Source: Octopus vulgaris
Taxonomy: Eukaryota
DNA length: 64,000 nucleotides
Direction of reading: 5' to 3'
Assembly: GCA_951406725.2 (NCBI GenBank)
Contig: OX597831.1
Coordinates: 70,494,001 to 70,558,000, forward strand
The first letter of the stretch is position 1. The number at the start of each line of letters is the position of its first letter. Below are positions 4,833-59,740 of this stretch, in pieces. The notes beneath the pieces were generated by a model that searched no databases, was not told the DNA's origin, and worked only from the letters and a program-made list of their open reading frames with translations. The translations under genes were made by a program, and so were the position numbers.

Positions 4833-5172
4833 TTACGGAGATGTACTTGCATAGCAAGTGACTTGATCTGAGATCGTGTGATGGAACGAAAACAATTGCA
4901 GTGTGGAAGGTGTTTATAAGCCATTTAAGAAACACACAAAACCGTTAGATTCATTTCAACATTTAAATTTAATTTGTCAAAATATTTTCATTGGTTTGAG
5001 ACCACGACCTGTTCACTGACAAAGCTGTAATGCAGCACGAAGTTTTGTCCGTGAACAGGTCGCGGTCTCAAAGCGATGAAAATATTTTGACAAATTAAAT
5101 TTAAATGTTGAAGTGAATCGAACAGCTTTTGTGTGTTTCTTAAATGGCTTATAAACACCTTCCATGCTGCAA
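4833..5172. mobile_element. Fold-back element with ~130-bp inverted arms and a hammerhead-shaped motif
   Basis: Arms ~4896-5025 and ~5041-5172 are reverse complements (ttgcagtgtggaaggtgtttataagcc... / ...ggcttataaacaccttccatgctgcaa); an unpaired extension lies on the left. Confidence 0.8.
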
Positions 5173-5524
5173 ACTTCAAATTTTTCTTAGAAAAACTGAA
5201 TTTAGTTCTGTAGTGTTCATAGATTAGTATGATCTAGTTTTCATTTAGACATCTGTTCTGCAATCACATAATTTCTGGTTTGGTCTCATGAATTGTTGTG
5301 CAAGCAGAAAACCAACTGAGTTCATTCCAAATATGCTTCATACATATTAGCATTCTCATGCCTCAGGTTCATCATTACCTTTGTGAATTTGATAGAGGAA
5401 AACTATACAGAGGCCCACTATGAATGTGTGTGTGTGTATGTACGTGTGCGTGCACACGTGCATGCATGCATGTGTGTGCTTGCATATGCATGTGTACGTG
5501 TGTGTGTGTTTCCTAATATACACC

Positions 5525-6230
5525 ACCATTGAGGACACCCATTGTCCTCAATGGTGATATTCTTGAAGAGGTTGAGAGTTTCAAATACCTTGGCGCCATC
5601 ATTACAGCTACAGATCAAGGTGAGGCTGACATTAAAACACAAATTGACCTCGCTCACCAAGCCTTCAACCAACTCAGTGCACAACTCTGGTCAAAGTACG
5701 GATCTACTAAGCACTAGTGCGAATGATTCTCCTTTATGGCAGCGAGTCATGGCCAATGAGAGTGGAAGATATTATGTGACTAGAATCCTTCAATCACCTC
5801 TGTCTATGCCACATCCTTCATGTCCGATGGCATCACTTTGTCTCTAACAATTTGGTGTGACACCAGTGCAGAATCACCTCCCTCCGACAAGTCATCCTAA
5901 CGAGACATCTGCGTTGGCTGGGTCATGCTCTCCGTTGTCAACAGGAGAATTCATCTACAAAGCAATTGCCCCAGCTCCCCTTCAGGGTTAGCAAAGCGAT
6001 GTGGTGGACAATGGAAAACATGGCTGATGACAGTCAAGGCTGATCTGGAACCCAACCTAGGGCCCCATATCTATGGCGTTCGCCGCTGGAATAAGGAGTG
6101 GTTGGAGATCACGTGGTCGTTAGCCTCAAATCGCCAGGCCTAGTCGGCATTTGTGAGAGATGCAGCATTGAGGATGAATTAAGCCAGCTCAACCCACCCC
6201 GGGTGAATGCTGTAAAAGAAGAAGAAGAAA
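5525..6230 (+). mobile_element. RTE-clade LINE 3' fragment (RT C-terminus), decayed
   Basis: Translations LEEVESFKYLGAII, LLYGSESW, LRWLGHALR; ends in a (GAA)n tail; frameshifts and stops present. Confidence 0.85.
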
Positions 6231-6489
6231 AATATACACCAGCAAAGACATGAAAAACTGGCATTCTTCAAATGAAGTCGCTTGCAATATTTGCTTTATA
6301 TCAAGCTATAGACTCCTTTGTCACTCTTCTGATTGGAAAAAATAAAAGCAATATTGCAGTGAATGGCTTTCATTGGAAACTGAAACCAACGATGCTATAA
6401 TATTATTCATGAATTGTAATATACATAAATAAATATAAGTAGAAGTGAACTGTGAAAGGGCTAAAATTAGTAATGATAAAGTTAGTGTG

Positions 6490-6840
6490 CATACAAGACA
6501 GAGTGTAATCTCCCTGAGAGAAAACTTGGATATAAGAGGCATCAGATGTGGTATATAAGAGAGATGACTGTGCTAGTATGGTCATGTGTTACGTATGGAT
6601 AAGGACAGCTGTGTGAAGGAGTGTCACACCCTAACAGTGGAGGGAAGCTGTGGAAGAGGTAGACCCAGGAAGACATGACATGAGATGGGGAAACCTGACC
6701 TTCGAATGTTGGACCTCACAGAGGCAGTGACAAGTGCCAGAGACCTTTGGAGATATGCTGTGCTCAGAGAAGACCTGGCAAGCCAAGTGAGATCAAAGCT
6801 ATGGCCTATGCCAGTGTTGCATAACCAGCCCATTTAAGAG
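6490..6840 (+). mobile_element. RTE-type LINE 3' fragment, decayed
   Basis: Reads ..YGHVLRMDKDSCVKECHTLTVEGSCGRGRPRKT.. with stops, a typical RTE C-terminus. Confidence 0.8.
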
Positions 6841-6869
6841 TTCCTTTCAACCTGTTGATTCAATTGAAA

Positions 6870-7230
6870 TTGTTGTTGTGGCCGATGCCAGTCAGGCAGT
6901 ACTGGCACCCATGCGGGAGGCACATAAAAAGTACCATTCGAGCATGTTCAATGCCAGTGCCACCAGATTGGCTTCTGTGCTGTTGGCACATTAAAAGCAC
7001 CATATGAGCATGGCCAATGCTAATGTCACCTGACTGGCTCCCATGCTGGTGGTATGTGAAAAGCACAATTCAAATTTGGTCAATGCCAGTGCCACCTGAC
7101 TGGCTCCCGTGCCAGTGGCACATAAAAAGCACCTACTACACTTTCGGAGTGGTTGGCATTAGGAAGGGCATTCAGCTGTAGAAACTTTGCCAGATTAGAT
7201 TGGAGCCTGGTGCAGCGATGATGATGACTG
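6870..7230 (+). mobile_element. Family D repeat (RTE-tail-like element with internal ~60-bp tandem units)
   Basis: Units GCCAGTGCCACCTGACTGGCTCCCGTGCC..GGCACATAAAAAGCACC, then GAGTGGTTGGCATTAGGAAGGGCA; homologous to 34512-34866 and 58011-58930. Confidence 0.75.
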
Positions 7231-8302
7231 GTAGTGGTGGTGGTGGTGGAGGAGGAGGAGCAGGAGGAGCAGGAGGATATGCTGTGTTATTATGTATAGG
7301 CCATGAAATTTTTAATTCCCCGGCAATAAAGGCTTTACAGTTTGAAAGTATAGTTGTTGTTATTTTATTGCTGTCATGCCCTGGGTATCCTTTGCTTGCA
7401 TGGAAACTATGATCAAAGATATTCCTTCCATGACTATCACTTCTTTTTGGAGATGTGTAGGATTATGTTATTGTTTATTTAAGCTAATAAGCTATGATTT
7501 AAGAGACCGTAACTGTTATTTTTAGCAGGTCATCTCTGTTTATAGAAGCTTCCGCATTTTCACATGAAGGGAATAGCAATTGCTAGCAGAAACAGCAGAT
7601 ATTATTTGATGCTGCTAGCTTCAGTAAAACTGTGAGAGGGAAACAAGATTATGGGCCTTTGCTTTTTCAATTAAGGTCTACTTTCTCATGGTTTAGCAGC
7701 AATTCCATTAAATTTGCAGAAACATAAAATGACTATTAAATAAGAAAACAGTTGTTATAACATAGGGTATATGAGATAGATGCCATGGAATTTGCCCAAT
7801 AATTTATATCTCTTACACCTCGCTGCTTCACTTAACAGATATGTTTACCAAAATTTATGACCATTTAAAACACAATTCTTGCTATTAGCTATTGTCTTCC
7901 TAGTTAAATCCCTATATCAATATTTGATAATAATGTTGAGGATGATGAGGAAGATGATGATGACAACTTCAGTAATATTTCCATCATAGTATTTCTCTAC
8001 CATTATATTTCTTCAACAAGGAACATTGGCAGCATAGACAGGAAAGAATAAATAAATAGATGAATTAATTAATGTTTATGAATGCTTATACATTGAGTGT
8101 ATGTGTGTGTGCGTGTGTGTGCGTGTGTGTGTGTGTGTGTGTGCGTGCGTGTGTGTGTGTGTGTGTGTGTGTTTAATATACAATAGCAATATAGGTGCGT
8201 GTGTCTGCATGCATATATTTATGTATGAAAATGCATTCAACATTTATTATGGTGCTGAATCTTCAAATTATATAGAACTGAGCCCTGTTGATATATATAT
8301 AT

Positions 8303-8521
8303 AAGGAGAGCTGGCAGAAACGTTAGCACGCTGGGCGAAATGTGTAGCCGTATTTCGTCTGCCGTTACGTTCTGAGTTCAAATTCTGCCGAGGTCGACTT
8401 TGCCTTTCATCCTTTCGGGGTCGATAAATTAAGTACCAGTTACGCACTTGGGTTGATATAATCAACTTAATCCGTTTGTCTGTCCTCTCTGTGTTTAGCC
8501 CCTTGTGGGTAGTAAAGAAAT
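8303..8521 (+). mobile_element. SINE family B
   Basis: GAGCTGGCAGAAACGTTAGC head, GAGTTCAAATT B-box, core GCCTTTCATCCTTTCGGGGTCGATAAATTAAGTACCAG. Confidence 0.9.
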
Positions 8522-8542
8522 ATATATACACACACACACAAA

Positions 8543-8578
<36 letters not shown>

Positions 8579-9719
8579 GATACACACAGATGTATATATG
8601 CACATACATACATATACATAATAGACATCATTATGCTCCTCATTATTTCTTAGCATTTCCTGTATGAAGCTGTAGGATTTTAAACTTTTGTGGAGAGAAG
8701 GCTCCATAACAATTCTCGATGATTCTTTAATGAAAGACAGAAAAAGTCACTTCAATCCTCACTGCAAAGCCTCCAAAGATTTTTGGTCTATGCCTGAATT
8801 CTCTTTTCATAGCAAAACGAAGTGTGTGTGTGTGTGCTTTCATACATAAAATGCATAATGAAGAGAGAGTGAGGTGCCTTTTATATATGAATTTCTTTGT
8901 TGATTGCTAAGTATAGCCTTAATTACAATCAAAGTGGTCTGTTTTGATTGAAATGAGAGCAATCTGTAAAAGCTGCTGTAAACAGGCTTCTCCCTCTTTC
9001 ATAACTACAAACAGGATCAGAGAGTCAAAAACTGAGCTTTTGTGTGATCATTTGTTCTGCGCCAAAATAGTACCAAAATCTCTCCTGTATGACTTCAAAA
9101 CAGAGAGTACACATTGAAGAAGCCCTAGATATACAAAAGATCATTGGTTCATGCTTAAAATGTCTTTGTAGACCTGTTTGATTAGATTGACTTGCAGCTA
9201 AACAAAAAACAGAAACAGCAACAACCAAGATCAAAAGCAAAATGTCAGGTAATTTTTGTGTAAAAGTTATTATCATGGCTGTGTGGTTGAGAAACAGGCT
9301 TCTCAACAGAATTCCATTGCATGGCTACTATGAAATGTGTCTTCTACTATAACCTTGGCTAGACCAATGCTTCATAAGAGGAATTTCGTTGCCACCATCA
9401 TATATGCACACAAACACACACACACACACACGTGCGCGTGCACAGGCACACACATACACACACACACAAACAATTAAACAAGTGTGTTTGTTTTTTTTGT
9501 CTTCACATTCACACAGCTTAAGCAGCTGAAATGTTGGGTTAATTCCTCCATTAATAAAAAGGTTGGCTTTTCAGTGTCTTGCTGGGAAGTGAGAGCAGTG
9601 GAATAAATTAATGACTTGAAACCAAATGAGGCTTGGCCAAAGAAAGGGCATCCAATAATAGAATATTACATGAGTAAATCTAATCCAACTTGTGCTAGTA
9701 TAGAACCAACAAGGGTAAC

Positions 9720-9895
9720 AGTGATGTTGGTATTGGTGATGGTGGTGGTGGTGATGGTTGTGATGATGATGGTGGTAGTGGTGGTGGTGGTGGTGGTGGT
9801 GATGGTTGTGATGATGATGGTGGTAGTGGTGGTGGTGGTGGGAGTGGTGGTGGTGGCAAATCTAGGAATGATGACAATCATAATGATGATGAGGC
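9720..9895. repeat. (GGT/GAT)n compound microsatellite
   Basis: Seen directly; explains the poly-V, poly-T and poly-P ORFs. Confidence 0.9.
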
Positions 9896-10350: not shown

Positions 10351-12309
10351 ACTGATCAGAAAATAAAACCTGTCAACAAGGAATATGTATAATAATTATT
10401 TTCTTTAACCTTTATATATATTTTATAGATAATATATGTAAATAAATATAATATATAATCTATATATGTATAAAATATTTTCTATATATTTTCATTTCAG
10501 TTCCTTTTGTTGTTGTTGTTGTTGTTATTAATAATTTTACTCTTGTTATTATTATTGTTGATATTTTTTCAACATATTATATCAGAAAATATAGTTTTGT
10601 TCAAACTATAAAACTCTATAGAAAACTATAAAACTATAGAAATATTTAGAGATAAAACAAAAAAGCAAAATGAAGGAAGCAAACCATGTAGGAAATAACA
10701 AAATATATTCATCTCCATTACCACGTTTATCTGTGACAAGATGATACGACAGAAATAACTTCTGTTAAGCTTTATTCTCTGAAATGAAAATGATGAAATG
10801 ATCATAAAATTATATTAAGAGCTCCTAGCATACTTTATAAGTTTATGCAAATATATAATAAATAAGAGAGGTTACTGCCATGTGTCATACTAAGGTGGAA
10901 TATATAATCAATATATGCTTAACATGTGGCACAAATTTGGTAAAGTTCCAATTATTTATTGCATATATGTTACATTTTATTTCTGCTTGTTATAATTTAG
11001 TATTATTTTTCCGTATAGTTGCAGGTAGCGGTTGTCTGTGCATGTATGTGTGTGAAGTAATACTGAGGATGATGATGATAATGTTGGTGATGATAATGAT
11101 CCCTACTATATTTGTATATATCTATATGCACATATAATACACATATATATGGTTTAGTGTTTTGAGAATTTTAACTGAAACTTACTTGAGAAAATTTCCT
11201 TTCACAGATATGCTTTAACACACATGAAGAGACACACATATAGACACACAACATGTGCACAGGCATACGTACATGATTAAAATGAAGCAAAGCTTAAGAA
11301 TGAGAAATAGCATTATTTTATTGGATACAGTTTTTGATAGAATATTTCATGTAAATCTTAAAATATACAAAATAATCATGTATGTGTGTGTGTATGCATG
11401 TGTATGTATATGTACATTATGTGAGGTGCAAGATCTGATCACTAAAAACTTGCTACTGGTAACCATGAAATCCTGTACAACCTATTGCATGGTCAGGTCA
11501 TTGGCAAGTATGCTGATAACCCCACTTGGCATACTTGGTTGAGGAGGGTAATTTTTAGACACTGTTCAGGAAGAAAGAGATCTCTCAAAGGGTAGACAAA
11601 CTCATGAGAGTCAGTGGCCATTCAATAGTGTGTGTGCTTGTATGTGTGTGTGTATACACACACACACACACACACACACAGACATATATAAATACATAAA
11701 ATTTTAATTTAATTTAAAATAAAATTTTAAATAAGCAGGAAATGGAGAAAAATTTTGATCAACAAACAAACAAATTGACCAACAAACATCAATTAATCAT
11801 TTTTTTAATACAAAACTTAACAGTGCTTACGGCCATTTTGGCTACCAATGTCAGTCGGTGCCTACAAAGAAAATACCGAAAATAATATTCGTCATCTTTA
11901 TAACACTTTCAATCTTGTACATGGAGCTTCAGCAGAGTGAATACAAATGCATAAAATAAAAGGGAAGAGGGAAGAGGAAAGAACAGGACCTTGAGATGAG
12001 GCAAGAAGGCTCAATATATTAGAATCATACCATTTTGCAGTGTGAAACTTGAAGTCGATGGGCAAAAGAGTAAACTAGCAAATAATCTAGAAATATAATT
12101 GGTGACGTTTATCGCTTTTTATAGGGGTACTAGGGTGTATAAATAATAGTAAAATAAAACTAGTGCTAAAGTAAAGCAGGAATCGTCAATATGTCTAGAA
12201 AAGGATAGTACTTGTGATTTTGTAAATAGAGCTAATTAATATTTATCCAAAAACAAACCCGTAAAGTTTTTATAACAGTGTACTTACTGAAATATTCTAG
12301 AGACCAACC

Positions 12310-13550
12310 ACTTGTTGTCTGTAATGGAACTGACTCTTGGCTTTGTTGATTGTCATAGGGAAGCACAATTGCACTGGGAACTGGAGGCATTAGAATTGAA
12401 ATGGCACATTTGAGTGAATAAGGGGCAAGTGTGGAATGTATGTGATCTCTCCTCGATAGGACGACTTGTCGTCGTAGTTATAATCAATCTTGTAGCATTG
12501 CATAGTTGTGGTGGGTCCAAATTCCTCAAGAGCATGATTGGTGCACCTTTCTTTAGGAACATTTGTGGTAGCAGTCCTGTGAGTTGTAGAGAGTTAAAAA
12601 ATTCAACTGGATGCTCAACAGCGGCATGTTCGTCGATGGTAGTATCAGTGGAGACAAACGTTGAAGCATCTCCAGGTAGAATGTGGAGGAGTTCGTGGTT
12701 TACTTTATCAACACTTTCATTCTGAGGTGCTAAAATAGCTCTCTCTGTGAACCATGCTATGTTTTTGAAGTTGTCTTGCAATATGGGAAATACATTTTCT
12801 TTAAGCTCAGCCAATGTAGACACCATGTGACCACATTGCAAAGACACCATTTCCAAGTAGAAGTTGATGAAAGAATTCCTCAGCTAAGGGGTCGTTGTAG
12901 AGATGAGCTCACATATTGTTGCTTAATGAAAGCTGACAAACAAACCTCCTCAAAGGTGAAGACCTTCAGACATACATAGATGTCATATTTGATGGAAATC
13001 TCCTGCGAGGACAACAGTTATGCCCCCACCCCAATAATAGCAGTATTGTTTCTAACACGGTGGCAAGCTGGAAGAAACGTTAGCACGCCAGGCGAAGTGC
13101 TTTGCGGTATTTCGCCCGTCTCTACGTTCTGAGTTCAAATTCCGTCGAGGTCGAATTTGCCTTTCATCCTTTCGGGGTAGATAAATTAAGTACCAGTTAC
13201 ACACTGGGGTCGATGTAATCGACTTAATCCGTTTGTCTGTCCTTGTTTGTCCCCTCTATGTTTAGCCCCTTGTGGGCAATAAAGAAACAAGTATTGTTTC
13301 TAATATCCCTTAGTGACCTATATAGGGCTTCTAGTGGACCACGGTGTGCCAGCGTGCATTCATCCCAGACAATAAGTGTAGTTTAGAGTAGAACTTCTGC
13401 CGTCGGTGGTCCTTTTGAAATATTACACTTTTGGGCATCACTGAAGTGAGTTTTCTTGAGCACAAATAGAAGCAATTTTCTTTGTGGCCCTTTTTTTGAG
13501 CAGATAAATGAGAATGTCTTCATTTTGGAGGCATTGCTGAAAAGAGTGAA
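12310..13550 (-). mobile_element. Helitron RepHel remnant (PIF1-like helicase domain), pseudogenised
   Basis: Minus-strand reads: LIVWDECTLAH (Walker B), GITVVLAGDFHQ, ERAILAPQN, GAPIMLLRNLDPPQLCNATRL, QFPVQLCFPMTINKA; stops and frameshifts; a SINE is inserted. Confidence 0.9.
13056..13289 (+). mobile_element. SINE family B inserted in the Helitron, 14-bp TSD
   Basis: Family B consensus; AGTATTGTTTCTAA at 13042-13055 and 13290-13303. Confidence 0.9.
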
Positions 13551-18298: not shown

Positions 18299-18329
18299 GA
18301 ATGTATATGTATGTTTGTATGTATCGTTT

Positions 18330-18580
18330 GTAGAACCATAAATCCGAAGAAACACACTCTAAGATGTAGAGCAGTATATATTAAAAATGAGGAAGGCTGG
18401 TTTATGGGATTGCCCTGGATTTCCCATTCATAAAGGGTTTAGCTTTCTGGCATATCATCACACTCCAAAACCTGTTGGCCAACAGGTTTTCAAGGCTGAT
18501 GATATTCCATAAAGCTAAAGCGTTTATGGATGGGAAACCCAGGGAAAATCCCATAAACTGGCCTTCTCCATTTTTAATAT
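18330..18580. mobile_element. Fold-back element with a degenerate hammerhead motif
   Basis: Imperfect ~200-bp palindrome 18377-18580 centred on perfect AAAACCTGTTGGCCAACAGGTTTT (18467-18490); CTGATGA at 18496 and GAAAC at 18534. Confidence 0.75.
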
Positions 18581-22615: not shown

Positions 22616-22780
22616 AAGGCGGTGAGCTGGCAGAATCATTACCATACTAACGAAAATACTTAGTGGCATTCTGCCTGTCTCTACATTCTGAGTTCAAATT
22701 CCACCAAGGTGAACTTTGCTTTTCATCCATTCAGGTTCAATAAAATAAGTACTAGTTGATCACTGGGGTTAATGTAATTT
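22616..22780 (+). mobile_element. SINE family B, 3'-truncated
   Basis: AAGGCGGTGAGCTGGCAGAA..GAGTTCAAATTCC.. Confidence 0.8.
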
Positions 22781-24132
22781 CTACTTAGTATAGGGGACAT
22801 TTCCTTTATGAAGACTTACTCCTGTATTTCTCTGAGTGATGGATCCTTCGGGTGCTTGGATAAAATGTGGATGTCAAGTCAGTCCATCATGTCTCCATGT
22901 TGGTAGAGTATGGAGGACTGCTTTTTGTCAACATGTTGCTTCAAGTGTGCTTTTATTCTCTCCACAATACTTCTAGATGTCTCTCCAATGTATATCATGT
23001 TTTTTGTTCTTACAAGCACTCTCTATGAACCTTATGGTGTAGACTACATTTATAGTTCTACACCTGATGCCAGGCTGAATCTTACATACCTCATTACAGT
23101 TCTCATTAGTGCATGTGGTATTTTCGAAGGGCTACATTCTATATAATTGTGATCTTTCTGGCTTTTCAATGATTTTAATGTTGAGTTTGGTTTCCTGCAA
23201 AGCTTCCTAAATCTATGAGCTAGTTCCCTAAAGGGTGTGGTCTCGACAAACATCACTCCTTGATATTTGTCAGCCCTGTACTATCTGTTCACTCTGCTTT
23301 GTCACAAAAACTCTGTATACTATTCCAGTCTTTACCTCTGTATCTAGGGTGGGTACCACTGGTTTCATTACATATAACATTATCAAACTTCTTCCAAGCT
23401 CCCCTGTATACACGAATCCGGAGAATTGCATGTGATGCATGAAGTTCTGTATATGTTTCTTTGTTTCATAGTGTTCACATATAGGGGCACGTTATTCATT
23501 ATCCTAATAAAGTCTGCTATCAGTATGTTAATTTTCGTATTGTGTGACAAAGCTGAGTTCTTGTGAACAATGTATTTAGAAGCTGTGGGTTTCATGTAAT
23601 AGGAGTGGAGGGGCTGCACTCTGTTGTTCCCAGTCTCTAACCAAAGTTCAGTATCAAGGACAGGGAATCTATTGCTAGGGTGCCTAGTGGTGTAACCTAT
23701 AGTTACCTTGATACTTTGGTGGATGGAGTTTGCTACATGCTGGATGCTCTCCATTATGCTCCTCTTGGTTTCTACACTACATTTACTAGGGTTTCTCCTA
23801 ACTAGAATATTGATATCATCTACATACCTACAGTAAGGCAATACAGTTGTGGATTGTTCAGCTAAGGATTGTTTAAGTTTTCTGTTACACCAGGTCATGA
23901 AGAGGTCGACCACATCTCTAGCCTCATTGATACCAATGGCTGCACCCTGAACCTGCATGAATAGTTTCCTTTCAAACTGCACTTTGTGGTTCTTCAAGGT
24001 GGTTCTTATGCCAGCCCCTATAGCATGCACCATCAATCATTGCACCTGATTGTTGTTCTCAGTGTCCTGGTTGAGGATGGTCCAGCCACTCCAGTACTTT
24101 GTAGTGCTTTTCTTCACTGCTGAGGTGATGGC

Positions 24133-24677
24133 CAACAAAAAAATGAAAGTTGGCTTGTGGTCCTTCAGTGTAAAGTAAGTTGCTGGTTTGCCTGTACAAG
24201 CATCACAACTTATTCACTCACCAATACTTAGAAATTTCAAAACATGTTGTCAATTGCTAATCTAACACAAATTTCAGCTGACCTAATCATAAGTTTTCCA
24301 GGTTTCTCCAATCTGTCACTGATGTTAGGTGGCACTACTTGCTGATACTTATATGGTCAACAGTACTTACAAGGTAGACTATTTGTTTTTGTTTGTTTTG
24401 TTCTATTTATTATTATAACCTGTTTGCTTTTAGCTTCAGCCATGGTTCCAATGAATAAAGAAAATACTATTCCTGCTAAATACAAACACCAGATATTGTT
24501 CAAGACAAAATTGAACTTTTGAAAAAAAAAAACCCACTCAAAAACTCGACTAATGCATCTGTAAAAAGTCTACGAGAATTATACAGCACTGGATCTTTCA
24601 CGATTTATGAGAAAAAGAAATATGAAACCTGACCTCAGAAAAAGGAAGACATCTCAAGAAGTACAACAGATCATAAA
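24133..24677. other. 545-bp insertion of unknown origin inside the Penelope RT, flanked by a 19-bp direct repeat
   Basis: TCACTGCTGAGGTGATGGC at 24114-24132 and 24678-24696; RT homology resumes on both sides. Confidence 0.8.
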
Positions 24678-25639
24678 TCACTGCTGAGGTGATGGCGGGT
24701 GAACTTCCCCTCTGTGACCTGGTGGAGCAGAAACTACTTAAATCATAGTTGCCTAGGTAGTTACAATCAGAGCAGAGTTTTAGAAGGAGGCCCAGTTACA
24801 GAACTCTACTTCACTCTCACAGATAGTCTCAATGCATTTTTCCACAGCGAAATCTATGTCTATAGATGGTTTGAGGGAAACCACATACATACTACCCATT
24901 ACACAACCTGCAAGGTTGTTGGAGTGGTAGCAACTACTGAATTCTACCGAGGAGGTCCTCCATGCTCACACATATATTCAGGGACATTTCAGTGAGTAGT
25001 CATAACACCTGTGAAAGGAAGTAGAATAGCTTATAATTACTGGAAATATTTGCTCTGCAAACTGGCTGGGCTGGGGGCCCCATAATAGGGTCTACAAAGG
25101 TTTATTGTCCTTTTATAGCCTGTACATCATAGCAACATCGTTGATGTATGCTTGAAAATTTTGTGCAATCTGTTTTCTGGGCCGGAGTATGTTGCACCTC
25201 ATTCCTATATGTGCATTTAGAAGTTTTTCTACTTTTCATGTTCCAGTGGTGCAACTTCTCTCATGCTACTGATGTGCTGTCGCATGGTCTGGACATAGTT
25301 CTGTGGGCCATCTATCGACAGATTTGTCCATAGGGAAGCACACTAATTCCCTGTTCCTAATTTGCTGTTTCGGTTTTTGTAGGTCTTTGGTGACTGTTGA
25401 ACTGAGTTAGTGGCTCTCCTCCTCATTATATTTTTTAGTGGGTTTATTATATTGGTCTAAGATATGTCAGAGTTTATTTCTAGTTAAAGAAATCTTTGCC
25501 TCTGTCTCACTGTCTGTCTGTGGTGGAATACACACCCTTTTGTTGAAGGGTAAGTGTGCAGGGTAGATCCTCGTCATGTCGTACGGTTTATCATAGGAGT
25601 TATAGAAGACAGAGTCAATGGTGCAACCGGTGTTACTAT

Positions 25640-27287: not shown

Positions 27288-28528
27288 GCATAGGCTGACC
27301 AAGATACTCTCATGGAATGTGACCAATTGAGGTTTATTTTTCAACATGGTCTCCCTTGTGGTCCACACATTTCTTCCATCGGTGTTGCAGTGCTTTGATT
27401 TCCTTGAAGAAGTTTTCATCTCAGTCAAAAAAGACATCAACAGCAGATATGACATCATCATCACTGCAATACTGGTTCCTAGCCAAGTGTCTTTTCATGA
27501 CGGGGAACAGATGATAGTCAAATGCAGCCAAATCAGGAGAACAGGGAGGTTGATCAACCAGTTCAAAGCCACAGTCATGGACAGCAGCCATTGAAACCAA
27601 GCTGGAGCATTGTCCTGATTACACAAGACCCCTTTCTTCAGTTTTCCTATGTGTGACATCTTGGTAGCTTTTTGTTACTGTCTCAGTACTCTCCATTGAT
27701 GCTGTGACCCTTTTGAAGAAGATGGTCTGTAAAGCATGATGTATTTTCTATCCGAAAAAACTGAGGCCACCATCTTCTCTGCAGATGAAACGACCTTGGC
27801 CTTCATTGGAGCAGGTGAGGAGGTGTGTTTCCACTGCACGGATTGTCTCTTTGTCTCTGGGCTCAAAGTGATGAACCCAACACTCATCCTGGGTTAGAAA
27901 ATGTTCAAGGAAACCATTTGGGTCTGCTTGAAACAATGTCAGATTTTGCCGCGATGTGCTCAGCCTGGTATGCTTTTGATCGGGTGTCAAAAGACATGGC
28001 ATCCCTTGAGCAGAAACCTTCATAATGCCAAGTTCATTGTGCAGAATATTCTTAACTCTCATGGGATATGATAATAGCATTGGCTGTTTGATTTGTAGTC
28101 AATCACCAGTTATTCATCACTATATGGTGAACACAATGTTTTCTTTGGTGATGGCAGTTTTAAGACATCTGGATGTCGGGTTTTCTTCAAGATTCTCTCT
28201 TCTCCTAAATTCAGCTGCTTCCTTTTGCACTATTGATAAAGCTGGAGTATAACCCACTAATATAGCAAGCATGTCAGCATGAATGTCCCTGGGAGCTAAA
28301 CCCTTTTTCTGCAGGTGCTTGATAATACCAGATGCTAAATTTTGTCCATCTTTAAGAGAAATACTTACTTGTTAACTCTTGAAATCCCCTTTGAACAGTC
28401 AGATGTCAGTTTAGCTGAAAAGAATCAGCACAATAATAAAAAGAGGGGAAATTAAAGCCTGCAAGATTTCACAGCTCTAGCAACACTCATTCATAGTCAG
28501 CCTATGACCTTTTGAACCCACCCTCGTA
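27288..28528 (-). mobile_element. Tc1/mariner transposon, decayed
   Basis: ILHNELGIMKVSA..CLLT, TQDECWVHHFEPETKRQSVQWKH, KMVASVF; TIR remnant CATAGGCTGAC at the left pairs with GTCAGCCTATG..CCCTCGTA at the right. Confidence 0.9.
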
Positions 28529-34868: not shown

Positions 34869-35494
34869 TTGACATGTGCTTTTGTATGCATAGACATGCA
34901 CACACACATTAAATTTCCGTTAATATTACATCTGCTGATATAAGATAATAAGTACCTACAACCAGTGCTCAGTTTGACTTCCTGCCTAAATCCAACGAGA
35001 ACTGTAATTAAAAATGTAAAGGTGTTATAGATGTCTAGATAAGGATTGTTTATAGGCAGTTCTTCAATCGAACTGGTACCTGTTTAATAGAATAAAGGTA
35101 GAGGCAAGTAAGCAACTGGTATCAAGCCAGATAATGACATTTATTTATTTGTACATTTATACTAAGGCAGAAATAGATGGTCACTAAAATGCTTGCAGGG
35201 AAATGTGCCAACAACACATCTATTCTTGAAACAGCTGTAGGAGACTACCTGTACAGCTTCTTTCTTTTCTCAACCAGCTTTGGAGTCTAGCTATGATTGT
35301 CTGCATTATTCTACTATCTAACATCAACAATACAGACTTTCTTTATAACTGTGTGTTTGTGTATAAATCTGTGCATGTGTCTGTATTGGATATACACATA
35401 CATGGCTGTATACACAAGCATCATGGCAGAATGCATATGGAGATCAAATCACATGCATATATATATATATATTCGTTTTGCAAGATTCTTCAGG

Positions 35495-35544
<50 letters not shown>

Positions 35545-35548
<4 letters not shown>

Positions 35549-35978
35549 TTAGGGAATAAATCCAAACTTACAGGGAAAAATCAGATTTAGGATTGAATCC
35601 AATTTATAGTAAAATATTATATTATAATAAATTAGAGACAAAACCACTATTATGCAAATCAAACAAAGAAAGACTTAATCCAATACATAAATTAATTTAT
35701 ATTATTTTGAAATTTAACAATTATTAATATCCACTACGATCGTTTCATGTCTTCTTTTCATCACATCTTTGAGTAGTAGACATTCTTCAGGTGGTTTCAA
35801 ATATTCTTGGCGAGTTTAAACTATGAACTCAAAGATGTGATGAAAAGAAGATATGAAACGATCATAGTGGATATTAATAATTGTTAAATTTCAAAATAAT
35901 ATAAATTAATTTATGTATTGGATTAAGTCTTTCTTTGTTTGATTTGCATAATAGTGGTTTTGTCTCTAATTTATTATA

Positions 35979-35983
<5 letters not shown>
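35545..35983 (-). mobile_element. Fold-back Penelope pseudo-LTR-like element inserted in (TA)n
   Basis: ~157-bp near-perfect inverted arms (35618-35774 and 35827-35983), a ~70-bp unpaired tail on the left, (TA)n on both sides; contains a hammerhead. Confidence 0.85.
35731..35794 (-). ncRNA. Type I minimal hammerhead ribozyme with an intact catalytic core
   Basis: Minus strand: CCAC-CUGAAGA-AUGUCU-[25 nt]-AGACAU-GAAAC-GAUC-GUA^GUGG; stem I 4 bp, stem II 6 bp, palindromic stem III loop. Confidence 0.85.
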
Positions 35984-36050
<67 letters not shown>

Positions 36051-36057
<7 letters not shown>

Positions 36058-36178
36058 TACTCAGATAGCATATGCATATATATATTTTTGCGTAGATATA
36101 CTAAATACTTCGATATATACACACTTGTTTATTTTCATATATATTATTATACATATGTTTCATACATTAATACACATG

Positions 36179-36232
<54 letters not shown>

Positions 36233-36404
36233 TTCATTTTGCAAGATTCTTGATGTGAATATATATATATATACATGGCCATGTGTATTAATGTATGAAA
36301 CATATGTATGATATATATGAAAATAAACAAGTGTGTATATATCGAAGTATTTAGTATATCTATGCAAAAATATATATATGCATATGCTATCTGAGTATTT
36401 TTAC
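36051..36404. repeat. Inverted duplication with ~130-bp arms around (TA)n
   Basis: 36051-36184 is the reverse complement of 36274-36404. Confidence 0.9.
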
Positions 36405-37039
36405 ATTTTAAGACTACATTTATAAATGTACCAAACATAGATTGCATTTATTTATGAACTTTTCCAATTTATTATAATCAATTAATCATTGATTAAGTTA
36501 AGTATATCTTTACTGCATATTATTCATACATTTATTCATTTATTTATCAATACATTTACATATTTGCATATTTCTTATACTTGTTTGTTTGTATGTATTT
36601 TCAAATATTGATCTTGTGGCAGTTTTATGCCTGTGTATTTTACTTAGTTTCAAATGATATCTTTGATCACACTGTCTACCTCTAATTCTTTGTTGTTATA
36701 TATATTTTGGGGAGGAATTATTTTCATTGTTAAGTATCAAATTTGTTCTAAACATTGGAATTTAAAAGAAAAATTCACTGAAATAATACAACAATATTTA
36801 TTGGAAACTGATAGCTTCACAAATCTTTACTCAAATTTTCTCATTTCTGGTCAACAGAGAATTGTTTATCACACTTATCATCTGTAGATTATCAAAACTG
36901 AGAAACAGAATGTAATGATTTGGAAAATTAATTATCACACACAGATGCACATGCACACATGCACACACACACACAAGTGAGTGGACAAACAAAAGAAAGA
37001 GGCACTCAATACATGTAGTAAGAGTTATAAACAGCTTAT

Positions 37040-37403: not shown

Positions 37404-38270
37404 ACAATGTGTATATGTATCTATGTATCTACTTCTTTTGTGATGTGATAAACATTTAAAAATACAAAACGAACGCTGTCACCACCCTCTCTCTTTCTCT
37501 CTCTCACTTCCTCTCTGTCCTCCTCTCTCTCGCTTTGCCACTTCTTCGAAGTAAGTGTGACGCACACTACAGGTACATACAAAAACAAAAAGCATAGTAA
37601 TATAATTGATGATGATGATAGTAATAATAATAATAATTGTTATTATTATTTCATACTTTTTGCCACAAGGGCAGCTTGGGGAATGTGGAGATGAGTCAAT
37701 TACATCCACCCCAGTGTCCAACTGGTACTTATTTTATCAACCCTGAAAGGATGAAGGACTAAGTCGATCTCGGTGGAATTTGAACTCAGAGCATAGCAAC
37801 AGGTGAAATAATGCTGGACACAATGCTTAGTGGTATTTCACCCGTTGCTATGTTCTGAGCTCAAATTCCACCAAGGTATAGACTTAGTCTTTCATTCGTT
37901 CAGGATTGATAAAATAAGTACCAGTTGAACACTGGGGTGGATGTAGTTGACTCATCTCCACCTTCCCCAAGCTGCCCTTGTGGCAAAAAGCTTGAAATAA
38001 TAATAATAATTATTATTATTATTACTATCATCATCATCAATTATATTAATATGCTTTTTGTTTTTGTATGTACCTGTTGTGTGCATCACACTTACTTCGA
38101 AGAAGTGGCAAAGCGAGAGAGAGGAGGACAGAGAGGAAGTGAAAGAGAGAAACTGAGAGAGAAAGAGAGAGAGTGAAAGAGACAGCGAGTGGTGACGGCG
38201 TTCGTTTTGTATTTTTAAATGTTTATCACATCACAAAAGAAGTAGATCCATAGATACATATACACATTGT
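37404..38270. repeat. Long inverted duplication (~410-440-bp arms, 23-bp spacer) containing a SINE B portion
   Basis: 37404-37810 against 37834-38270; the ORF track shows near-identical peptides on opposite strands. Confidence 0.92.
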
Positions 38271-39928: not shown

Positions 39929-39931
<3 letters not shown>

Positions 39932-40071
39932 GGAGTAAACACATAAATGTGAAACAAGGTGGAAAAAAGAGTACTCAAATACCAGGGGTAGAGTAATGTG
40001 CTTTATTACGAACGGGAACGTGAAACTCCGAGTAACAGGTTTTGTTGAATTTCTGCTGCTTTTAAATTAAG

Positions 40072-50314: not shown

Positions 50315-51279
50315 TATGAGAAGCATTCCAGAAGTTTTGAGGCCTTTTCAAGAGAGGCAGTTATAACTGCCTTAGATTATTGTAATTTTAGTATATCATC
50401 CCTATACATTTAATACGCTGACCTGCCAACCGTTGTCAATCCAGATTGAAGGAAACGACTGTAACAACACTTTGAATACAACCTCCTAAACACTGCTTGT
50501 TACAGTTGGACTAGTTTACAGAATACAGTCAGAATGTTTGGAAGCTCACTAAGCAATAAAGTTTTGTACTAAACTGAGGAAAACACCACAGAAAATATGA
50601 AATGCTCCACACTGCTTATGGATTGACATTTTCACTGGCACAACAGGATCAGAAATTGTAGAGAGGAGGAGAAAGATATGATGAGAAGCATGGAAAGGAG
50701 AGGGAGATCAGAACATCAGAGCTGGTTGAGAAAATTCACAAAGTTTCTTGATGAAGACGGTTATGTGTCTGTAAAGGCAATAAACATACTTTTTGGAGTT
50801 TCTGTGGCAACTGTACGCAGAATTATTTATGTAGATCTGAACATGAGCAAAATTTGGACAAAATTTCTGAGTATCTCTGAGTATTCTGAGTATCTGAGTA
50901 TCCTAGGATACTCAGTGATGAGCAGCCTAGTAACCAACTACTTGACAGAGATGGACATCAAAACTGTCTCTTACCCTCCCTACAGTTCAGACCTTGATCT
51001 TTGTGACTTTTGGTTGATCCCCAAGCTGAAGAAGCCGAAGGAGTACCTCAGGGACAGTCATTTTAAAGACTTTGAAAAGATGGAGGCTATGATAAAAATC
51101 CTGGACGCCTTCATTTTAGAGAACTTCCATTAGGTTTTCAAAAAGTGGCTGGAGTGCTACAACAAAGGCATTAAAGTCAGAGGAGCCTACGTTGAAGGAG
51201 ATGAGAGTTTTATATTTCTTTGAAATTTGATAAATGTTGTTTTTGAAAAAGTCTGAAAACTTCTGGAATGCACCTCATA
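50315..51279 (+). mobile_element. Internally deleted mariner transposon
   Basis: TIRs TATGAGAAGCATTCCAGAAGTTTT and AAAACTTCTGGAATGCACCTCATA; YPPYSSDLDLCDFWLIPKLK. Confidence 0.88.
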
Positions 51280-51907: not shown

Positions 51908-52259
51908 GGTTTTGCCAACTTTCTCTTTATGAAGGCAGCTGAACTTGTAAGATCTTCGTGTAACCGTTTACTGGTTGCATATCCAAGTGTTTTTGCATAT
52001 ACCATCTTCAAATTATGAATATAACAATTATTATGTAACTCCAAGCTTCCTGAAACAGCTGCTGGGGTTAGAAATTATGCATTCTCTTCTCTTCTTGGTT
52101 TGTGTACTGTTTTATGCTCTGCTTAAATATATTTGTTTGTTTGTTTGTTTGTTTGTATGTATGTATGTATGTATGTATGTATGTATGTATGTATCTATGT
52201 ATGTATGTATGTATGCATGCATGCATGTATGTATATATATGTATGTATGTATGTATAGT

Positions 52260-52500
52260 TCAAATTTACAGAAAACAAAAGATGAAGATGAGTTTAGGAA
52301 CAACCAACAAGCAGGTGTATTAGTTTAACACTCAGGAAGAATGAAAAAGTTTTCAATGTTTCGAGCTTATGCTCTTCGACAGAAAGGATTAAGAAGAAAA
52401 AAAACAAAGAGAGAATGTAAAAAAAATTGAGAGAGAAAAAATTGTGTATGGATTAATGGTTCAACATGATGAAATGGCCAGAAGAGGCTGAGTGAAAGGG
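52260..52500 (-). mobile_element. Short element with a degenerate hammerhead-like motif, related to 58998-59202
   Basis: Minus strand TTT-CTGTCGA-A-GAGC-ATAA-GCTC-GAAAC-ATT at 52351-52386. Confidence 0.55.
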
Positions 52501-52719
52501 AGATAATAACAGTGACCTGAAACTAAGGTGTGCAAGTGTATATGTGTATGTTAATGGGGACCAGTGCATGTGTATGTATGTGTGGGTGAGCTTGAAATTA
52601 TCTGGGCCTGTGTGTGTGTTTGTGTATAAGTGACCCAGTGTGTGTGTTGTTTGGAGTGATGTGCATTTTGTGTATTTGTGATAGATTTGTCAAACCCATC
52701 AAAAAATCATCTTACAAGC

Positions 52720-54550: not shown

Positions 54551-54634
54551 AACTAACTTCAAGTGGTGGGCAGCATTTCCTATTGGGAATTGAAATTGGA
54601 AGTTTAGCTCTATATTATATGAAGTATGGAAATA

Positions 54635-54840
54635 TTGGTTTCAAAATTTGGCATAAGGCCAGCAGCTTTGGGGGAGGGTGTAAGTCAATTACATCGACCC
54701 CAGTGCTCAACTGGTATTTATTTTATCAACCTCCAAAAGAATGAAAAGCAAAGTCGATCTTAACAGAATTTGAACTCAGAATGTAAAGATTGGCGAGATA
54801 CTGTAAAGCATTTTCCCTGGTGTACTAACAATTCTACCAA
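54635..54840 (-). mobile_element. SINE family B, diverged
   Basis: CATCGACCCCAGTG..GAATTTGAACTCAGAA. Confidence 0.75.
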
Positions 54841-54841
54841 C

Positions 54842-55190
54842 TTTTACTCTTTTACTCTTTTACTTGTTTCAGTCAGTTGACTGCGGCCATGCTGGAGTAC
54901 CGCCTTTAGTCGAGCAAATCGGCCCCAGAACTTATTCTTTGTAAGCCCAGTACTTATTCTAGCAATGCTGGGGGGACAAAGACAGACACACAAACACATA
55001 CACACACACACACATATATATATACATATATACGACAGGCTTCTTTCAGTTTCCGTCTACCAAATCCACTCACAAGGCATTGGTCGGCCCGAGGCTATAG
55101 CAGAAGGCACTTGCCCAAGATGCCACGCAGTGGGACTGAACCCCGAACCATGTGGTTGGTTAGCAAGCTACTTACCACACAGCCACTCCT
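54842..55190 (-). mobile_element. SINE family A with an internal deletion
   Basis: Consensus match lacking the central segment. Confidence 0.9.
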
Positions 55191-58010
55191 TGCTGACTCA
55201 AATGAAGGAAATAATAATAAAAGTTTACAATGAACATGAAGTATGGAAACATTGGAAGTATTCCAAGTTCTTTACTGTTTTCTATATTGGATTGTGCTAG
55301 AATCTTCATTTGTTACACTACATCCTCTTTCAACACAGAATACTGTTATGTGATGTAATAAAAACAGTTCCTAAGTGATGAGAAGCATTTAATAGCCCCT
55401 GCTTAACTCTGGTATCAACACGTAGAATGGATGAAAGAGTTAAAATGTTCACTGGATAGGATGTTTATGTATCATTAATAACCTTTCCAAATATTAAGAT
55501 ATCTCTTGCTAATATAGACGGATAGGAGTTTATAGAATATAACATCCTGTCCAGATTGCAAATTAAATGTTTGCCATGAATTTGAACTCACAACCTGTAA
55601 ATTTATAGTCCACTAACTTATCCTGTTTACAATACACTAAACTATGTTATGCTTTTCTCTTTAACTTTGCTGCTTTGCATTGTACCTTCCTATAATTCTT
55701 CACCATACTATTTAACACATACATAAAAAAAACCCACTAAGATATGTGCAGGCTCATGTGTCTTGATAATCCATCTATCTTTAGCCTATGAAACTATTTA
55801 CAGCAACGACAACAACAATGACAATATCAACAATAATTACAATAACTACAGTATCATTATCAGCTGCAGCAACACAGTAACAGCAGCAATTATGATCACT
55901 AGTGCATGAAAGAGCAAACTAGCAACTGCAATGCAGTATGAAAGCAGGATAAATGAGAACAAACAAAAAAAAAATGTTGGTGGGCTTTGGTGACAAGTGG
56001 AAATATGGATAACCAATTGCTGTTTCAGGTTGTTTCATAGAAAGAAATAATATGCTGATTTATGGGCATGCACAATGGCTTCCTCGTGTCAGCAATTTGT
56101 GATAAAAGGGGATAATAATAATGAATTGTGCTGCAATAAAATAAAAAATAGCATTTTTGCATCCATTGTACTTTATGATATTTCTCTGATAAATTTCCTA
56201 GTGTTTTTTTCTTTGGTTTATTTTTGATTGAATTATTTCTTTTTATTTTCTTTCTTTTTTCTGGGTTTTTTTTTTTTTTGTAGTTTAACTTCTGCTTCAT
56301 TCTGAGAATTGGGTGAATTTTGCTTTCTTTTTCGATTTCTAAGTCTTTCAACAAAAGCCATATCATAAATATGCCATCATTCCACCATTGAATAATCAAA
56401 AGTAGAGTAATGAATTCTCCCTTTTAATTAATGCTAGAAAATACAAAAGAAGGCAGCAACAAGATTGGGAAATAATTGATACTGAAAATATATGAATGGT
56501 TATTAGGGTGGTGGAGTCATATAATACAATAAGATACCAGACTAGATGTAATATTTAGTTTTTTCCATCAAAGTTCTGAATTCCAGTCTCAATGGATTAA
56601 TTTTATATCTAATTCTTTCAGGGTCGATAAAATACATGACAATCAATGAAATTTAAAGTTCATTTTACTTTGTCTGATCTAATTCTTCAAGGTTTTGAGT
56701 ACATCCACTGCAGTAACAAACTTTACTTATCTCCAGCCTCTCATACAGTATGCTCTACAATATATTATTGCATCTTACAGTATTTTAAGTTCAATTTTTA
56801 TTGCAACCAAGATCACCTTTCTTTCTTCCTGGGTCAAAAACTGATGCTTGAAATGTTATTGTGATTAACGAAGAGAAAAATGTCCGTTGTGGTGGTTTCT
56901 TATGTTAATTCTGAGTTTTCTCTTGGAATCTATTTTTCATCACATCAGACTTGTCTATGGCATTCTTCATGAATGACCCGAAAAGTTCCTCTCCAAATTG
57001 TAACCCTGCCCATGAGTGTAAGTCTCCTTTCTCCATACTGCTGATCATGTCCTAGAGGAAGTTTAAAGTTAATACAACCTGGTGCTACTGTTGTCACAGA
57101 CACTGACATCAGACTACAGAGAACCAGAAAACATATCACAAGGCCACTCTTTCGATCCTCAAACAATTCCACCAAAGATTATTAACATTATATGGCATCA
57201 ATTCAATCAACCATAACCACTCTGACAAAAATTTTCTTTTTCTTAATAAACGAAACAACTATGGCATTTATCTCTGATTACTTTAACCTTTTTCTAGTTA
57301 ATCATTTTATTTTATTTTATTTTATCTTACTGTTTAAAATATTTGTTTGTTTTTGATTCAGTGTTTTCTGATGACATTTTATGGACGATTTCCTTTAAAC
57401 TTTACTACTTGGATTCTTTTTGAAAGTTTTTAAGAAACATTTCAACAACATTTTCTTTCCATCCTCACCCATTCCTAAATGTTATTCTTCCTTCTTCTTC
57501 CTTCTCATCATCATACTCCACCACCACTGCCACTACCACCACCACCACCAATATCAATATGTGGACCACCAGCATTGTTGTGACTGACATCTTTCAACAT
57601 CCACATTTTCTCTATTCCTATCAACTCTACCATCATCATGATTTCAGTTTTCATTAAGGCAGATATCTCAGACACCATCATGATCGTCATCATTCACATA
57701 CCATCATCATCACCATCATCACCGCTGGTTTATTGCTCAGTTGTTTTCAAGTGACATAACAGCTGAATAGCTAATGGATAACTAATCTATTTCCCAGCAA
57801 TATTATTTCATTTGTAAGACAGAACTATCTGGTGCTAAATTTGATACTGATTAGTTATATACATATAATGTGCTAAAAACTTATCAGAAAATATTGGAGA
57901 AATTAGTTTCTTTTCACAGAATTGATGCCCTTCTCAAAGACATTAACAACTTATACACAACCAAAATCACTACACCCGAAAATCAAAATGAAGTCATATA
58001 TATATATATA

Positions 58011-58926
58011 TCATCATCATCATCATCATCATTTAACGTCCGCTTTCCATGCTAGCATGGGTTGGACGGTTCAACTGGGGTCTGGGGAGCCCGAAAGCTG
58101 CACCAGTCCAGTCAGATCTGGCAGTGTTTCTACAGCTGGATGCCCTTCCTAACGCCAACCACTCCGAGAGTGTAGTGGGTGATTTTATGTGCCACCGACA
58201 CAGGTGCCAGACGAGGCTGGCAAACGGCCACGCTCGGATGGTGTTTTTTATGTGCCACCGACACAGGTGCCAGACGAGGCTGGCAGACGGCCACGCTCGG
58301 ATGGTGTTTCTTTTTTTTATGTGCCACCGACACAGGTGCCAGACGAGGCTGGCAGACGGCCACGCTCGGATGGTGTTTTTATGTGCCACCGACACAGGTG
58401 CCAGACGAGGCTGGCAGACGGCCACGCTCGGATGGTGTTTTTATGTGCCACCGACACAGGTGCCAGATGAGGCTGGCAAACGGCCACGATCGGATGGTGC
58501 TTGTTACGTGCCCACAGCACGGAGGCCAGTCAATGCGGTACTGGCTACGGCCACGTTTGGATGGTTTTCTTATGTGCCACGTGCCACCGGCACTGGTACC
58601 ACAAAGATACAAATTCCATTGATGTTCATCTATTTTGATTTGTTTTGATTTTCACTTGCCTCAACAGGTCTTCACAAGTGTCACAAGAAGGAAGGTATGC
58701 ACAGGTGGACTGACTACGTCCCAGGTAGGGGCCATGGGTTATGGCCTGACTAGTCTTGCCGGGTCTTCGGATGGTGTTTTTATGTGCCACCGACACAGGT
58801 GCTAGATGAGGCTGGTGAACGGCCACGATCGGATGGTGTTTGTCATGTGCCCACCGCACTGACTACAGCACTGATGGATTTCTTGTGTGCCACAGGCACT
58901 GGTACCACAAGATACAAATTCCATTG

Positions 58927-58930
<4 letters not shown>
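58011..58930 (-). mobile_element. Family D element with an expanded ~61-bp tandem array
   Basis: (CAT)n tail; five near-identical units TTTTATGTGCCACCGACACAGGTGCCAGACGAGGCTGGCAGACGGCCACGCTCGGATGGTG at ~58183-58500. Confidence 0.88.
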
Positions 58931-58965
<35 letters not shown>

Positions 58966-58997
58966 TACACATACATATATATATATATATATATACA

Positions 58998-59202
58998 TGA
59001 CCTCGTGTGTACCGTTGGCGATTTTTTTTCCTCTGTCTTCCCTTCTCTGGATCTTTCGTTCTCCTATGTTTCCGACAAAGAGCTCCGCTTGAAACGTTAA
59101 ACCCTCCTTCTTTCCTTCTTTCCTGAGCGTCCAATAATACTATATTTGTTCCACGTCCTCGCGTTGTTGTGTTTTTTTGTGCTTTCTTGTTTGGATTAAC
59201 TT
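58998..59202 (+). mobile_element. Short element in (TA)n with a hammerhead-like motif
   Basis: GTTT-CCGACAA-A-GAGC-TCC-GCTT-GAAAC-GTT-AAAC at 59068-59102. Confidence 0.6.
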
Positions 59203-59242
<40 letters not shown>

Positions 59243-59384
59243 TGTATGTATATATATTTATATATATATATATATACATATATGTATGTATATATATGTA
59301 TATATGTATATATGTGTGTGTGTGTATATATATATATATGTATGTATATATACATACATATATATGTGTGTATATATATATATC

Positions 59385-59740
59385 CATCTAAGAATCCATA
59401 AGTCAGGAAAAATATACACACAAATATTTGTCAATAGAGTGGGTATATTAGTTGAAGTGTACAATATTATATATCAATTACAGCCAATCTTACCAATCCA
59501 TTTCACAATAGGGGTTCAGCAGTGTGTTTGGTAACAGACCGATTATGTAACCCTGCACTCTTCAGAAATGGCAGTTATGGAATGAAATATGGTGCCATAT
59601 TCCATTCCATAACTGCAATATCTGAAGAGTGCATAGTTACATAATCAAGCTGTTATCTAACACTCTGTTGCACCTCTACTGCAAAACCGATTGGTAAGAT
59701 CAGCTTTAAAGGATATATAATACTGTGCACTTTGATTAAT
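59385..59740. mobile_element. Fold-back element with two opposed degenerate hammerheads
   Basis: Imperfect palindrome 59447-59740; CTGAAGA..AAAACCGATTGGTAAGAT (+, 59618-59700) and CTGAAGA..GAAATGGATTGGTAAGAT (-, 59487-59569). Confidence 0.75.

Follow-up and report, generated by a model that had tools for sequence, protein, structure and literature searches.

Seven short hammerhead-bearing repeats in a genomic window of Octopus vulgaris as probable ends of Penelope-like elements

The 64,000-nucleotide stretch of contig OX597831.1 from Octopus vulgaris that was analysed here, hereafter the window, is rich in microsatellites and holds seven short repeats, which we label by their position in kilobases as F4 (4.8), F18 (18.3), F35 (35.5), F39 (39.9), F52 (52.3), F59a (59.0) and F59b (59.4). 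A preceding sequence-only reading had described them as mini-elements carrying hammerhead ribozyme motifs, without primary similarity outside the pair at 52.3 and 59.0 kb. All seven are present at the positions claimed, no mutual similarity among them was detected by BLAST at E<0.01, and F52 and F59a are the only related elements, with a local alignment score of 66, where 300 shuffles reached no more than 46. A self-BLAST of the window revealed near inverted arms at 4896-5172, 18378-18580, 35614-35988 and 59447-59740, each accompanied by a one-sided tail, which bears out the arrangement of tail, arm and inverted arm described for F4, F18, F35 and F59b. The same arrangement is found in F39 (39930..40071, plus strand), which consists of a reversed tail, a 7-nt arm stub and a 5'-truncated arm with a truncated core.

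The best preserved of these repeats, F35 (35545..35988, minus strand), is embedded in (TA)n and comprises a 69-nt tail (35545-35613), an arm and an inverted arm (35827-35988). Its arm contains an intact type-I hammerhead (35731..35794, minus strand) with stem I CCAC/GUGG, the core CUGAAGA (35790-35784), a 6-bp stem II, GAAA at 35746, the palindromic stem III CGAUCG and a predicted cut after 35735. F4 (4834..5170, minus strand) is composed of a 62-nt tail (4834-4895), an arm and an inverted arm and is bordered by a target-site duplication of 11-12 bp (left copy 4823..4833, plus strand; right copy 5171-5181); its arm hammerhead carries the core GUGAACA at 5016, in which the 3-8 pair is swapped to G3-C8, and a damaged stem II, and the core of the inverted arm is located at 5051 (plus strand). 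In F18 (18325..18580, minus strand), a tail of about 53 nt is combined with a damaged arm core at 18461 and an inverted-arm core at 18496 whose cleavage site is damaged. F59b (59384..59740, minus strand) has a tail of about 63 nt, an arm core CUGAAGA at 59565 and an inverted-arm core at 59622 (plus strand). Minimal hammerheads are found in F52 (52257..52540, minus strand), which is without an inverted arm and contains the damaged core CUGUCGA (A6U) at 52382, and in F59a (58998..59202, plus strand), which resides in (TA)n and whose family core CCGACGA is altered here at G8 (59072). Close to F35, between TA tracts, we also noticed two pieces of about 30 nt with the core-like start CACCUGAAGAAU (35465-35500 and 36230-36262, minus strand), around which inverted arms at 36053-36190 and 36270-36405 form a TA-split inverted repeat; together they are possibly another Penelope-like end nested with F35.

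The properties of the families were investigated in the genome (2.8 Gb, 227 contigs), where a first search returned 2,837 candidates for F4, 2,021 for F18, 1,864 for F35, 1,328 for F39, 4,518 for F52, 2,275 for F59a and 1,847 for F59b. For each family, 40 candidates were scored and the best 30 retrieved, so that these samples are biased toward copies resembling the one in the window; to offset this bias, added samples were drawn with queries omitting the 5' part. Across copies, the elements have a fixed outer end and a variable centre, as illustrated by F35, where the inverted arm begins at query positions 70-80 in 18 of 30 copies with spans of 261-547 nt. A (TA)4 sequence lies within 24 nt of the 3' end in 30/30 copies of F35, 29/30 of F39, 25/30 of F59a, 16/26 of F18, 14/29 each of F4 and F52 and 8/21 of F59b, amounting to 38-100% of anchored copies compared to 3-7% of control 24-mers. 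The suggested insertion bias toward (TA)n is supported. The window copy of F4 is located outside such a tract between its 11-12-bp duplication, and F4 is in general the exception with respect to targets: 17 of 46 distinct copies reside in TA, and a duplication of 10-14 nt flanks 16 of 29 non-TA copies, with none of 10 nt or longer in controls. Target duplications of this family measure about 12 bp, and the expected absence of duplications of fixed length fails for F4.

To characterize the hammerheads, we applied a strict type-I descriptor, requiring the core, three stems and a NUH site in order, to the 30 copies of each family and to 600 shuffles each. It is passed by 24 copies of F35, 16 of F4, 14 of F59a, four of F59b, three of F52 and none of F18 and F39, compared to 0-1 of the 600 shuffles per family. 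The F39 family, whose stem II measures 3 bp, passes once the descriptor allows this length, and F18 copies have a core, a long helix and stems I and III, but a bulge at the base of stem II. A type-I hammerhead is consequently found above chance in F35, F4, F59a, F59b and F52, and in F39 with a 3-bp stem II. In the F35 family, the elements follow in the order CCAC-CUGAAGA-6-bp stem II-GAAA-CGAUCG-UA-GUGG; F4 copies show a 7-bp stem I, the core GUGAACA, an extra G and GUCGC/GCGAC. F59a and F39 share the core CCGACGA (U4C), F52 has CUGUCGA, and F59b and F18 have CUGANGA with a long stem II. Covariation is observed as compensatory changes between F35 subfamilies (stem II AUGUC/GACAU or UUGUC/GACAA, stem III CGAUCG or CAAUUG, with a loop II of 6-27 nt) and at core pair 3-8, which is C-G or G-C and, as judged by eye, U-A in the family of locus L251, all within few independent lineages. 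The combination of core, stem II and GAAA that had been ascribed to each element is seen at the level of families, with an irregular stem II in F18, whereas in the window only F35 is intact by the strict descriptor. The six other copies have broken cores or stems and their hammerheads thus rest on family copies. A second strict match in the window, at 10,619, is TA-rich and looks like a chance event, and an Rfam scan of the window contained no hammerhead model among the 150 matches listed of 164. If transcribed, inverted copies are predicted to form strong hairpins (–123 to –237 kcal/mol), as had been proposed, and pairing of their arms would compete with the ribozyme fold. The related proposal of self-cleavage sites in host introns appears doubtful: such cleavage is unlikely since most copies in the window (6/7) are damaged, and minimal hammerheads of Penelope-like elements (PLEs) have been reported to require dimers or PLE protein.

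The assignment to PLEs is based on longer genomic copies, in which five families are continuous with open reading frames (ORFs) containing a GIY-YIG endonuclease. For F35, locus L261 encloses a 422-residue frame covering the thumb and GIY-YIG regions 2.7 kb above the ribozyme, and in loci L329 and L331 a close relative of F35 is found directly before the ATG of intact ORFs of about 840 residues and again about 3.4 kb past their stop. As assigned by motifs and BLAST, a full reverse transcriptase (RT) and GIY-YIG ORF is reached for F35 and the endonuclease C-terminus for F18 (L081, L088, L267), F59b (L144), F39 (L356/L465) and F52 (L458, L459, L460, L462). F18, F39 and F59b thereby represent 3' ends of Hydra-like PLEs and F52 that of a PLE with a Neptune-like endonuclease, both labels being motif-based. 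F59a, a relative of F52, extends by more than 1.1 kb in longer copies. Above its cut-off, Pfam does not recognize these ORFs; L251 and L244 only gave sub-threshold matches to RVT_1/GIY_YIG_2, and the pieces from L261, L266 and L267 gave no match. The partner ORF of F35 contains RWK-like, DKT and CxCX5C motifs along with a GIY-YIG domain at its C-terminus, and these features fit the Hydra clade (PMC8557442). The copies further show hallmarks of PLEs in having a pseudo-long terminal repeat (pLTR) in partial tandem or inverted form, a fixed 3' end and a one-sided tail. In the intact ORFs of L329 and L331, an asparagine-rich insert separates the RT thumb from the endonuclease, as in Adineta PLEs (PMC3846280).

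The decayed Penelope-like ORF noted previously in the window is real, with RT and GIY-YIG regions at 22760..25400 (minus strand), and we considered it as a partner of the seven elements. This was rejected, as it matches none of their ORF partners and belongs to a different family related to L251 and L244. Its group includes a young PLE family (L244) with intact ORFs of 1,310 residues and its own variant hammerhead, whose core in the pLTR (L244:6218-6270, G000:C17) reads CUGAUGC with A9 changed to C; copies of this young family terminate 15-90 nt into the beginning of the ORF. By eye, we also recognized a motif resembling a hammerhead, with U3-A8 in its core, at L251:6660-6720 (G000:C8), in the family of the decayed ORF itself.

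The F35 family provides insight into the RNA from which such copies originate. In the window copy, a short exon of 27 nt (35803-35829, minus strand) is joined to the sequence that begins 7 nt ahead of stem I, and longer copies carry a 1,377-nt GT-AG intron exactly at this junction (35802..35803), so that the intron is retained in long copies and lost in short ones. Exact matches comprise 24 spliced copies in 23 loci and 17 unspliced copies in 16 loci, and in L019 and L024 a more distal GT donor is joined to the same acceptor. The two forms differ at their 5' ends: in 22 of the 23 spliced loci the copy stops between 13 and 28 nt above the junction, at a wall with the initiator-like sequence TTAGTTC, whereas at least 13 of the 16 unspliced loci run from 48 to more than 2,700 nt above it. 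Among these lengths, two values were discounted as likely matches of inverted arms, and one arm is short. When four sequencing runs presumed to be RNA were compared with part of an unspliced copy, a contig of run X8 skipped the same intron and matched 28 nt at the exon end; since spliced DNA copies exist, it provides no evidence of expression. In L018 (G000:C15:74540881-74544139), an F35 copy is joined exactly at the splice acceptor to an unrelated sequence ending in AG, possibly an exon of the host to which the element was spliced.

A similarly sharp boundary is found in F4, where 211 arms in the list of query matches reach an identical 5' base. We inspected 60 of the first 64 arms listed, skipping four duplicates of an earlier sample, and found that 53 stop at this base and seven continue into shared upstream sequence with a C before it. 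In the stopping arms, the preceding base is a G in 34 of 53 cases, compared to a background of 13% (p=2e-17), and no letters are shared further upstream.

With a probability of roughly 0.8, we propose that the seven repeats are hammerhead-bearing pLTR ends of at least six PLE families, five of them joined to ORFs, that were likely made by target-primed reverse transcription from two internal sites, with spliced F35 and F4 likely constituting cDNAs of capped leaders. Reverse transcription would start at two positions just below the putative ribozyme, about 200-260 nt below the presumed transcription start, and would give rise to a tail-bearing arm and a tail-less inverted arm. On a long read-through RNA, priming in the downstream pLTR would lead to intron-retaining and variably 5'-truncated copies, which may reach the ORF; on a capped mRNA, priming in the first pLTR would produce a cDNA of the leader only, spliced and ending at the transcription start, and the RT running off the cap would add a base opposite to it, which would account for the extra G in F4 and spliced F35. 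Judged from their genomic copies, both families likely come from such priming in the first pLTR of a capped mRNA, whose start is likely marked by the two walls. Leader priming would also explain why ORF-bearing copies keep the intron while short ones lose it. Experiments in vitro with a PLE from an anole have demonstrated internal priming and the resulting tail (PMC11167929), an extra G was described as cap signature of full-length L1 insertions (PMC11702581), and the start site of Penelope in a similar layout is found 46 nt above its pLTR intron (PMC2377424). The majority of copies in the genome were probably inactive from the moment of insertion. The balance tilts slightly toward a second type of PLE product, in which priming in the element's own capped and spliced leader inserts cap-terminated hammerhead cDNAs that may seed self-propagating short families such as F4. 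The same slight preference holds for a sense template in these families, as opposed to the antisense template proposed by Arkhipova et al., 2013 (PMC3846280).

Several observations weigh against this proposal or narrow its reach. One spliced F35 locus extends 43-49 nt above the junction, and only four spliced loci reach the wall, with a G before it in two. The wall of F4 resembles a 3' splice site, with a branch-point-like motif, a pyrimidine tract and CAG, so that the G might instead derive from a very short first exon or a G-bearing master copy. No wall or G was seen in F39, which serves as negative control and for which 463 matches were obtained, about 45 of the first 100, counted by eye, continuing upstream, and the 5' ends of F18 and F59b show an ordinary spread, so that leader copying is not general. 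For F59a, whose 5' ends pile up without a G, we abandoned a strict wall, since 8 of 28 copies from a fresh sample were found to extend beyond it by over 130 nt. The longer copies of F59a do not reach an ORF within their extension, nor do those of F4, which provide about 0.2-0.3 kb of CA-rich sequence in the approximately 0.9-1.5 kb read upstream. Finally, the core is about as conserved as its flank in F35 (0.990 vs 0.982), F4 (0.990 vs 0.984) and F52 (0.903 vs 0.902) and less so in F59a (0.947 vs 0.987), exceeding it only in F18 (0.950 vs 0.927) and F59b (0.947 vs 0.895), which provides no support for selection on inserted copies and is expected under neutral decay.

The abundance of F4 raises the question of whether this family, and perhaps spliced F35, could propagate on its own as a non-autonomous unit of about 215 nt with an internal promoter that is served in trans by PLE protein, in a manner resembling short interspersed elements (SINEs) or monomeric retrozymes. 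Its 2,837 candidates, the 211 arms sharing one 5' base, target duplications of about 12 bp and the lack of an ORF in five longer copies would be in line with such behaviour, the promoter of Penelope is internal (PMC2377424), and non-autonomous PLEs and PLE-related retrozymes have been described (PMC8557442; bioRxiv 10.64898/2026.07.22.740005). We regard this explanation as possible but tentative: the CA-rich upstream sequence shared by 7 of 60 arms, which resembles introns or untranslated regions of other PLEs, signifies the existence of a longer F4 parent, and no tandem arrays were found among the F4 loci viewed. Self-propagation can also be a later stage of leader copying.

Alternatively, all short copies could be plain 5'-truncated PLE insertions, with walls caused by RT pausing at structure or by a few short masters and the spliced form constituting an intronless subfamily. 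Truncation at the 5' end is the norm in PLEs (PMC8557442, PMC8969392), F18, F39, F52 and F59b behave accordingly, the ends of F59a pile up without a G, and a single exon base distinguishes spliced F35 copies from L261. As a general account we nevertheless find it unlikely, since pausing leaves unexplained why 34 of 53 F4 arms carry a G in place of the C of the longer form, and likewise the exact loss of a GT-AG intron and the use of two donors with one acceptor, and since a long intronless master should yield copies past the wall, which holds for a single one of 23 loci. That the repeats are miniature inverted-repeat transposable elements (MITEs) of DNA transposons with chance hammerhead motifs, to which the long inverted arms and the fairly uniform duplication length in F4 (10-14 nt in 16/29 non-TA copies) might point, is highly improbable in light of the asymmetric tail, the variable centre and length in place of symmetric and uniform terminal inverted repeats, the intron loss in F35, descriptor matches far above shuffles and the continuity with RT/GIY-YIG ORFs, which refutes it for five families, and the earlier distinction from MITEs thus proves correct.

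The proposed capped-leader copies bear on the open question of why PLEs retain introns, the meaning of which was called unknown by Craig et al., 2021 (PMC8557442), and of which RNA gets copied: the precise splicing and the G ends of genomic copies point to a capped sense mRNA as template. If true, a genome sequence would suffice to read off transcription starts and splice sites of PLEs. Young PLE ORFs that are intact and natural variants of the hammerhead core are also available in this genome for experiments in vitro, and annotation should label these repeats as PLE ends instead of MITEs. In a curated annotation of octopus repeats, which names 30 Penelope families with recent activity, hammerheads go unmentioned in the available text (PMC13282606).

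Elsewhere in the window, an inverted repeat of 867 nt (37404-38270) has arms flanking SINE-like pieces, and smaller inverted structures, whose arms are TA or SINE-like, are found at 1121-1369 and 63819-63972. A match to the Pif1 2B domain (12356-12883, minus strand; Pfam E 1e-11) likely represents a Helitron remnant. Transposase-like remnants at 27751-28098 (minus strand) and 50627-51130 (plus strand), for which Pfam only reports a helix-turn-helix match in the second, resemble the mariner type. Tandem repeats of 62-66 nt are contained within a common dispersed element at 58178-58512 and 6901-7133.

Compared with known systems, the Penelope origin, the hammerheads and the (TA)n bias of the sequence-only reading stand, whereas the notion of a novel system of dedicated mini-element families is not supported, because five families represent termini of PLEs with ORFs whose architecture is already published. 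Inverted 5'-truncated copies, one-sided tails and microsatellite bias have been described for PLEs (PMC8557442). Minimal hammerheads have been reported by the thousand, in copies that are single or on opposite strands (PMC4209133), and the tail has been explained as the segment lying between two internal sites of RT initiation (PMC11167929). Metazoan non-LTR retrozymes (PMC7229834; bioRxiv 10.64898/2026.07.22.740005) are equally short, non-coding and pLTR-related with a type-I hammerhead, but are organized head-to-tail in tandem; no such arrays were found at the seven sites, and family copies viewed occur singly or in inverted form and for the most part run into PLE ORFs. The minimal PLE hammerheads (Cervera and de la Pena, 2014, PMC4209133) agree with ours in their type-I fold with a short stem I, an additional nucleotide ahead of stem II and a stem III that is palindromic or missing, and also in many families per genome with thousands of copies, U3-A8 covariation and an intron ending near helix I; natural G3-C8 (F4), U4C and A6U cores were not found in the available text of that study and may be covered in the variant paper by Lunse et al. 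The Poseidon element PAc from Anolis (Frangieh et al., 2024, PMC11167929) is comparable in its AT-rich targets and in two internal RT starts that define the tail, as proposed here; its ribozyme is in need of protein, and a C3G/G8C double mutant partly rescues cleavage. It differs in its model of a tandem read-through template, with no cap-terminated or spliced leader copies described in the text available, and in a tail that ends inside the ORF, compared to about 60 nt before the ATG in F35. The closest known counterparts, endonuclease-containing (EN+) PLEs of the Hydra clade (PMC8557442), share the C-terminal GIY-YIG domain, the RWK-like, DKT and CxCX5C motifs, the pLTR hammerhead, (TA)n targets, the inverted 5'-truncated copy and the one-sided tail, but their tails measure 30-40 nt compared to 53-69 nt here, where the 3' region spans kilobases with an intron of 1.4-2.5 kb. 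While PLEs are described as intron-retaining (PMC8557442), spliced and 5'-walled genomic copies are common here, and no description of spliced or cap-terminated PLE leader copies was found in the literature searched, which consisted of openly available main texts. The seven repeats are thus largely known PLE biology, the ordinary debris of several families, among which the walled, spliced and G-ended leader copies probably constitute a new variant.

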